From assembly GCA_964458565.1 (NCBI GenBank), contig CAYWJO010000001.1, forward strand, positions 96,001 through 160,000: DNA of 64,000 nucleotides, given 5' to 3'. The notes beneath the pieces were generated by a model. That model saw only the letters and a program-made list of their open reading frames with translations, had not been told where the DNA came from and ran no database searches. The translations under genes were made by a program, and so were the position numbers. Source of the DNA: an uncultured archaeon (GTDB lineage: Archaea; Asgardarchaeota; Thorarchaeia; Thorarchaeales; Thorarchaeaceae). Below, in pieces: positions 13,463 through 14,711 of the stretch. How positions within the stretch are numbered: position 1 is the first letter of the stretch; the number at the start of each line of letters is the position of its first letter.

Positions 13463-13503
13463 AATCCATAAACCGATTTTAATGAAAAATGAGAGTTAGA
13501 AGG

Positions 13504-13520
13504 GGAGTCTTGCTGACTCC
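13504..13520. terminator. Hairpin GGAGTC-N5-GACTCC between convergent genes (3' end of actin mRNA)
   Basis: 6-bp inverted repeat about 20 nt past the true actin stop codon. Confidence 0.5.
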
Positions 13521-13541
13521 ACCTTCATAAACTAGTCCTGC

Positions 13542-14711
13542 TTAGATGCACCGGTGTATAACTTCAGGTCCTGCTTCTTCGAACTCTTTCCTTGAGACCC
13601 ACATTTACCAGGCTACAACGGGAATCGCTGCAGCATTCTGGAAGGTCTTCAAGGATGCGAGTATTGAGCCACCAATCCAAACTGAGTACTGTCTCTCAGG
13701 AGGAGCGATGATTCGGACTTCAACATTCTCAGGTACAAGTTCGGTAATCTCCTTATGGAGTCGTTCCTTGAGTCCTGGGAACATGGTTGAACCACCAGAA
13801 AGTACGATGTTTGCGTATAGGTCACGTCGCAAGTCAACGTCACAGTCCTTGATAGCCTCGACAATATGCTCATCGAGTGGCTTGGTGTCAAGTCCAATAG
13901 CACTTGGGTTGAAGAACAACTCAGGTCCTGTGAACCTCTCTGCACCAACTGTGATAACGTCACCATCAGGGAGCATGTATGGCTTGTCTACACCAGCCTT
14001 GTCTGCTACTGTCCTCTCACGCTCAGGGTCGAGGGCTACGTAACAGAGTTTCTCCTTGATATCACGGACGATCTCTTTCTCTGCACCGCTTACGAATGTA
14101 TAACCTCTCTGTCTGAGAAGTCTTCGCAAGTACTCGGTGATGTCACGGCCTGCTAAGTCAATACGCTTGATTGCGTGCGTGATGGCGAAACCTTCGTACA
14201 AAGGTACGATGTGTGTGACTCCGTCACCGCTGTCAACAACCAGACCTGTGGTTCTGCCAGATGCGTACAATGATAGAACTGCCTGTGTTGCTACATATAC
14301 TGCAGGAACACCGAAATTCTCAAACATGACTGATGCCATGCGTTCTCTGTTTTCTCTAGGGTTGAATGGTGCCTCTGTTAGGAGGACTGGGTTCTCACTG
14401 GGATCTACTTTCAAGTCGTTATAGAATGTATAGCTCCAAATCTTCTCAATTGCATCCCAGTCGTCGATTACACCGTGGGTGATTGGGTAAACCAATCGAA
14501 GTACACCACGGAGGTTGATTGCTTCTTCGCCGATGTAATAGTCTCGCGTGTAGTGGTCGACGTCGGTCATGATACTCTCGTATCGTGGGTAACCGATGAG
14601 TGTTGGCCAAACACTTCGAGGCTGATCTTCGCCGGCGTATCCGTTTTTGCTGAGCCCAGTACCGTTATCAATAACGATGGGCTTAGCTCCAAGAAATTCG
14701 TCTTCAGCCAT
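13542..14711 (-). CDS. Asgard actin (Lokiactin-type), split gene: exon1 14711-13636, exon2 13605-13542; spliced product 379 aa
   Basis: [79 protein letters not shown]. The actin C-terminus [20 protein letters not shown] continues in frame after a 30-nt insert. Confidence 0.97.
13606..13635 (-). other. Putative 30-nt bulge-helix-bulge (EndA-type) intron in actin mRNA, creating an in-frame UAA in the unspliced RNA
   Basis: mRNA CCAG-AA^U-GCUGCAGCG-AUUCC-CGUUGUAGC-CUGG-UA^A: 4-bp central helix CCAG/CUGG, two 3-nt bulges, 9-bp intron hairpin, outer exon pairing AGACCU/GGGUCU. Removal restores the frame. Confidence 0.88.

Follow-up and report, generated by a model that had tools for sequence, protein, structure and literature searches.

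How does a gene whose reading frame is closed by a stop codon shortly before its end give rise to a full-length actin, and does that stop serve as a switch? The gene in question lies on the minus strand at 13542-14711 of a 64,000-nucleotide stretch (the window, by which we mean the whole stretch analyzed) from an uncultured archaeon of the family Thorarchaeaceae. Translated as it stands, it gives an ORF of 368 amino acids (13605-14711, minus strand) that ends with TAA at 13607-13605 and matches the Pfam Actin profile over positions 5-390 (E 1.5e-121). The codon directly after this TAA, an ATG at 13604-13602, opens a piece of 20 amino acids, closed by a stop at 13544-13542, which covers profile positions 390-407. 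Since the profile is matched over positions 5-390 and then 390-407, this is one actin gene, whole except for a 30-nt insert at 13606-13635. The minus-strand RNA at the insert reads UUC CAG AAU GCU GCA GCG AUU CCC GUU GUA GCC UGG UAA AUG UGG. A profile search of the genome found the whole Actin profile matched by this gene only, the two other matches, both on contig C7, being partial. A second, divergent actin-family locus was noted at C7:61508-62329; it possesses Pfam parts 6-167 and 306-400 only and its product ends WMSRTEFTQK before the stop codon.

The RNA around the insert is predicted to adopt the bulge-helix-bulge (BHB) shape of archaeal tRNA introns. Folding of 76 nt gave -32.5 kcal/mol (z -5.13), a value that none of 200 shuffles equaled. 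Two 3-nt bulges lie on opposite strands with a 4-bp helix between them: the 5' bulge AAU (13635..13637) and the 3' bulge UAA (13605..13607), the latter read as an in-frame stop when the RNA is unspliced, are separated by a central helix formed by CCAG of exon 1 (13638..13641) and CUGG of the intron (13608..13611). From its 5' end, the intron is built of U, a strand of a 9-bp stem, an AUUCC loop, the returning 9-nt strand, CUGG and UA, the hairpin occupying 13612..13634. Beyond the bulges, an outer helix of 12 bp is predicted between exon 1 (13643..13655) and exon 2 (13589..13600), with AUGU between this helix and the 3' bulge left unpaired (or engaged in one U-A pair with a second bulge); the BHB motif is therefore relaxed on its outer 3' side. 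All of these features lie on the minus strand.

Comparison with the same gene in five related genomes lends further support to this structure. The six intron copies align without gaps and 89% of cells pair on the proposed structure, compared with 36-49% in slid controls. Six pairs are compensatory, two in the central helix and four in the hairpin, and none of 500 shuffles equaled this. The central helix is 96% paired across the six copies; both of its compensatory pairs (of four) occur in genome G022, where the strands read UCAA and UUGA, such that synonymous exon changes from UUC CAG to UUU CAA are matched by an intron change from CUGG to UUGA. In the hairpin, four of the nine pairs are changed on both sides and 96% of cells are paired. 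Support for the outer helix is weak because only 81% of its cells are paired with no double changes, and both of its strands are coding. Taken together, fold and covariation indicate that the insert is a real archaeal BHB (tRNA-type) intron. The description given by the sequence-only reading, of an intron with a length divisible by three (3n) and a 3' bulge UAA that is in frame and followed by AUG, is confirmed.

Where the intron would be cut can be narrowed by the product. In every intronless orthologue examined, the protein reads FQKMW at this position, and the predicted splice restores FQK-MW. Of the possible cuts, only those behind base 2 of both bulges (AA/U on the 5' side and UA/A on the 3' side) give a junction lysine in all six copies; cutting after the first base would give Arg in G013, and after the third Asn in five of the copies. 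Applying this same rule to the intron-bearing tRNA genes of the genome yielded tRNAs that are recognized by ARAGORN and have the expected anticodons. The intron (13606..13635) is consequently placed in phase 2 by fold, covariation and the restored junction. Exon 1 (13636..14711), drawn from the ORF list and the Pfam match, encodes residues Met1-Gln358 and supplies AA, with which the Lys359 codon begins; exon 2 (13542..13605), drawn from the Pfam match and codon differences, supplies the third base of Lys359, Met360 to Ile379 and the stop codon TAA. The predicted junction codon is AAA, hence Lys359 and not Asn, and the stop of the unspliced reading straddles the predicted 3' splice site. When the protein is aligned with actins of solved structure, the interrupted codon falls at rabbit actin Q354, and the Met after it at M355.

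The spliced actin has 379 amino acids, the same length as its intronless orthologues. A public protein of JGI/IMG origin (P0134, 379 aa) is identical to it at 379 of 379 positions, the next best match reaching 362 of 379; its source is either a transcript that has been spliced or, within the same population, an allele lacking the intron. It is encoded on a contig of 1221 nt, barely longer than the gene. Exon 2 behaves as a part of actin: it encodes the same protein sequence as the C-terminus of actins without the intron, and in the 15 pairwise comparisons of the six genes its 20 codons downstream of the intron differ synonymously in 148 cases and non-synonymously in 5. DNA beyond the actin stop is only 39% identical among the six genes in an ungapped comparison.

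The enzymes expected for such a reaction are encoded in the genome. Two genes, at C1:27246-27500 and C5:17476-17736, have EndA domains, of which one is similar to the catalytic half and the second to the N-terminal or beta half, and a match to RtcB was found (E 4.9e-177). The presence of two EndA subunits indicates the heterotetrameric type, and EndA in this organism is thus probably a two-subunit form. Heterotetrameric EndA is described as cutting non-canonical motifs (PMC5829648). We propose that EndA would cut after the second base of both bulges, excising the 30-nt mini-intron that interrupts actin codon 359 in phase 2, and that RtcB would join CAG AA to A AUG, giving Lys-Met and an actin of 379 amino acids. 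Under this scheme the 3' bulge would have to end in a purine for the Lys codon to be rebuilt. Because the intron length is 3n and the bulge is purine-ending, the bulge is read in frame as a single codon when the RNA is unspliced, here UAA.

With UAA in frame, unspliced transcripts will give a protein of 368 amino acids, and full-length actin therefore needs mRNA splicing. The length of this product had been predicted correctly from the sequence, although the segment it lacks comprises 21 residues (Lys359 to Ile379) and not 20, since a cut after bulge base 2 makes the junction codon AAA part of what is lost. In actin, the missing residues make up the helices at the C-terminal end of subdomain 1. 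A truncated actin without them is therefore unlikely to fold, and is most likely non-functional. In public records, the six intron-bearing genes nevertheless appear as proteins of 368 amino acids (367 in G022); this annotation is a mis-annotation that reports the truncated, unspliced reading. The deposited names are 'actin family protein' or 'actin, cytoplasmic 2', and one entry is labeled Lokiarchaeota.

The intron is an exception among relatives. Our family set comprised 86 genomes, 72 of which have an actin match; the intron is present in six of these (G000, which is the present genome, G008, G013, G019, G022 and G023), in which the actin match has 30 extra nt and is interrupted by one stop, and absent from 66. 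A search with the insert pattern returned the same six genomes and none of 314 others of the phylum, bearing in mind that the pattern was built on the flanking codons of this family and would miss divergent actins. A match to the pattern in a seventh family genome (G086) lay outside actin and was set aside as chance. A loose pattern scanned against metagenomes gave 119 stretches, all of which proved on checking to be chance matches, none in an actin gene. Similarly, a protein search with the C-terminal 40 residues found no cluster representative with the insert, because truncated forms sit in clusters led by intronless actins.

An actin DNA tree revealed that the intron is polymorphic within genera and that intron-bearing genes form no clade. 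Intron-bearing G019 pairs with intronless G004 of the same genus (support 100/99), and G022 groups, with weaker support (87/95), with two intronless congeners. The absence of the intron from 66 of the 72 genomes means that the actin biology of the family is independent of it. The junction Lys is AAG in all 15 intronless family genes extracted and would be AAA in the spliced intron-bearing genes. Loss by way of a copied-back spliced mRNA should leave some AAA codons, and there are none among the 15; repeated gain of the intron, or transfer of an intron-bearing segment, appears to fit this pattern better than repeated loss.

Similar mini-introns occur elsewhere in the genome. The tRNA-Thr(GGU) intron (C7:41051-41080) is 30 nt long and is constructed exactly like actin's, namely 1 + 9-bp stem + 5-nt loop + 9 + 4 + 2. 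The sole EF-1alpha-grade gene (C45:20100-21700; other profile matches are far weaker) contains two: intron 1 is a BHB mini-intron of 31 nt (C45:20259-20289) with the same build plus a bulged stem base, and intron 2, with the same 30-nt build as actin's, lies in frame between DFI and KNMITG. Loops across the actin, tRNA-Thr and EF-1alpha introns are AUUCC, AUUUC or CUUUC, and the stem sequences of the latter two differ from actin's. The common build, along with the central strand CUGG that the tRNA-Thr and actin introns share, suggests that one mini-intron family spans tRNA and protein genes. While the tRNA-Thr intron has no reading frame, unlike actin's, EF-1alpha intron 2 contains an in-frame UGA, situated at the stem/loop border rather than in the bulge as in actin. 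This intron occurs in four family genomes and the UGA is kept in all four. The in-frame stop of a 3n mini-intron is therefore not specific to actin. The EF-1alpha gene also holds a run of N flanked by GEFEAGIGPGGQTKEHAYL, which appears twice, and this looks like a scaffolding gap. Genome-wide BHB scans, run to gather 3n introns free of ascertainment bias, stayed at the level of their controls (for the loop motif, 37 matches against 37 in reversed sequence), missed EF-1alpha intron 2 and were given up. For ahcY, the ORF breaks at the expected codons but a clean BHB could not be placed, and we left this gene out of the argument.

Is the stop in the actin intron then a matter of chance? Each of the six copies contains exactly one in-frame stop. 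In G000, G008, G019 and G023 it is the 3' bulge, UAA, and in G013 the bulge is UGA; in G022 the bulge is AAA and the stop is the preceding codon, a UGA within the strand of the central helix. The base change that gives rise to this UGA is also the one that compensates for the altered exon. Of composition-matched shuffles of the insert, 28-49% have a single in-frame stop (about 0.3-0.5 per site). What is above chance is the RNA structure and the keeping of a stop in six of six copies, not the single stop itself. Two bulge changes are seen: one still leaves a stop, and the sole copy to lose the bulge stop has a back-up. In comparison, approximately nine other 3' bulges validated in the genome and family are never stop triplets (AAG, AAA, ACA, AAA and AAA in EF-1alpha; UUA, AAA, AUA and AUC in tRNAs), and the enzyme therefore does not demand U-purine-A. 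The tRNA bulges counted here are the few cases validated by tRNA recognition; broader statistics on BHB-like bulges in tRNA regions were half noise (34 versus 16.8 in shuffles) and were dropped. The pattern of stop retention is a hint that the stop is itself under selection, something left unexplained if it is regarded as purely incidental. The crude p value of this pattern is roughly 0.05, drawn from very few events under our own mutation assumptions, and is suggestive only.

It is tempting to speculate further. All ten copies of 3n introns with a reading frame (six of actin, four of EF-1alpha intron 2) contain a stop, although these come from two insertion sites only. In-frame stops may be actively maintained in the 3n tRNA-type mini-introns of Asgard coding genes, an archaeal counterpart of a rule known from ciliates, an idea that we hold tentatively and consider rather less probable than its opposite. 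If it is true, a retained intron would end translation instead of giving an insertion-bearing and possibly poisonous protein. A stronger version would have splicing efficiency tune the supply of actin. We know of no decay pathway of the nonsense-mediated kind in archaea. The question is thereby raised of whether archaea that splice mRNA and have no known nonsense-mediated decay guard against retained introns as ciliates do. The tiny 3n spliceosomal introns of ciliates are enriched in in-frame stops (Jaillon 2008, as cited in PMC5014332). Like the actin intron, they are very short, 3n in length and provided with an in-frame stop, such that a retained intron ends translation (PMC5014332). They differ in being spliceosomal where actin's is BHB, and the ciliate effect involves thousands of introns together with nonsense-mediated decay, compared with two 3n sites and ten copies here.

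On the balance of the sequence evidence, splicing of this transcript is probably obligatory and essentially constitutive; the stop would be passive, either incidental or a weakly kept fail-safe against an actin with a 10-residue insert translated from a retained intron, and no dedicated switch would be involved. Other explanations need to be weighed against this. The public annotation, simply a 368-residue actin family protein, could be read to mean that there is no intron, and that an assembly error, a decaying pseudogene or recoding (read-through or ribosome hopping over 30 bases) accounts for the interrupted frame. We regard this as highly improbable, since the same 30-nt insert occupies the same codon in six independent assemblies, compensatory changes keep its RNA shape and exon 2 is under strong purifying selection. 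Read-through was rejected as it would add 11 unconstrained residues, and ribosome hopping as matching take-off and landing codons are absent from the sequence. Barely credible, in our estimation, is a functional product from the unspliced RNA, whether an isoform of 368 amino acids with a function of its own or a 20-residue peptide made by reinitiation at the UAA-AUG junction, both of which the sequence-only reading had raised. Stop and start codons do abut, and the ORF of the unspliced reading is unbroken in the six genomes. Yet the AUG is a conserved Met of actin found in all intronless orthologues and was therefore not created for reinitiation, and the protein encoded by exon 2 is the C-terminus of intronless actins, as expected of a part of actin. 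The tail that the intron would encode is unconstrained: the differences in its ten codons are synonymous in 20 cases and non-synonymous in 65, following RNA pairing and not protein constraint. The loss of subdomain 1 helices further makes folding of the isoform unlikely.

A further alternative is that splicing is regulated, with EndA/RtcB activity or access to the BHB varying with conditions and gating production of functional actin in the manner of HAC1/XBP1. Of this proposal, also made from the sequence alone, the part stating that full actin requires splicing has stood, whereas a dedicated on/off or isoform switch finds no support. In its favor, unspliced RNA cannot yield full-length actin, and the absence of an in-frame stop from related introns, which would have counted against it, was not encountered: all six copies at this site keep one. 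Since the genome has no other full-length actin match, moreover, the supply of actin would respond directly to any shift in how efficiently this transcript is spliced. On the other side, 66 of the 72 relatives with an actin match, congeners included, do without the intron, and this genome's EF-1alpha and tRNA-Thr genes are interrupted by introns of the same type. EndA serves housekeeping functions, and nothing like the Ire1 sensor is apparent (the search for nucleases covered EndA genes). The intron yielded neither an alternative RNA fold nor a ligand-type element, and an Rfam search of the region matched no family. We consequently think a regulated switch unlikely. The introns of HAC1 and XBP1 are conserved across their lineages, and their removal changes the frame or the tail to produce an active factor. 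In contrast, the actin intron is sporadic, its spliced product is an ordinary actin and no sensor is known. Common to both systems is that splicing alters the C-terminal end of the protein (PMC4090602). HAC1/XBP1 mRNAs undergo non-spliceosomal splicing by protein enzymes, being joined by a tRNA ligase (RtcB in animals), as RtcB would do here, but they are cut by stress-activated Ire1 and not by the tRNA endonuclease (PMC4090602).

A close precedent for splicing of the actin transcript is found within archaea. In Crenarchaeota, the pre-mRNA of cbf5, encoding a pseudouridine synthase, contains a BHB intron whose splicing was shown experimentally (Watanabe 2002; Yokobori 2009, PMC2738675). Like actin's, it is a short (16-44 bp) BHB intron in a protein-coding gene, too short for a homing enzyme, with patchy gain and loss among relatives and with some copies of 3n length (PMC2738675). 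It is removed by the tRNA-splicing endonuclease (PMC2738675), as the actin intron would be, judging from its motif. The actin intron differs in host gene, in lineage (Thorarchaeota, Asgard) and in its position, which is near the 3' end and not at a catalytic codon. It also has an in-frame stop in every copy, whereas the text of PMC2738675 contains neither 'stop codon' nor 'in-frame', and the one 'termination codon' that it mentions refers to where cbf5 ends within a PCR product. The literature searched on splicing of archaeal coding sequences by the tRNA machinery covers cbf5 and one Haloferax mRNA as an endonuclease substrate, and no mention of an actin intron was found in it. The host gene gives the intron an added interest: in the Asgard archaea, as relatives of eukaryotes, actin is the signature gene of the cytoskeleton.

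Immediately downstream of the actin gene's stop codon, at 13499-13526 on the minus strand, we observed a GAAGG...CCUUC hairpin followed by U-rich sequence. It is present in all six intron-bearing genomes, with the ends of the stem conserved and the interior variable, and looks like a terminator.
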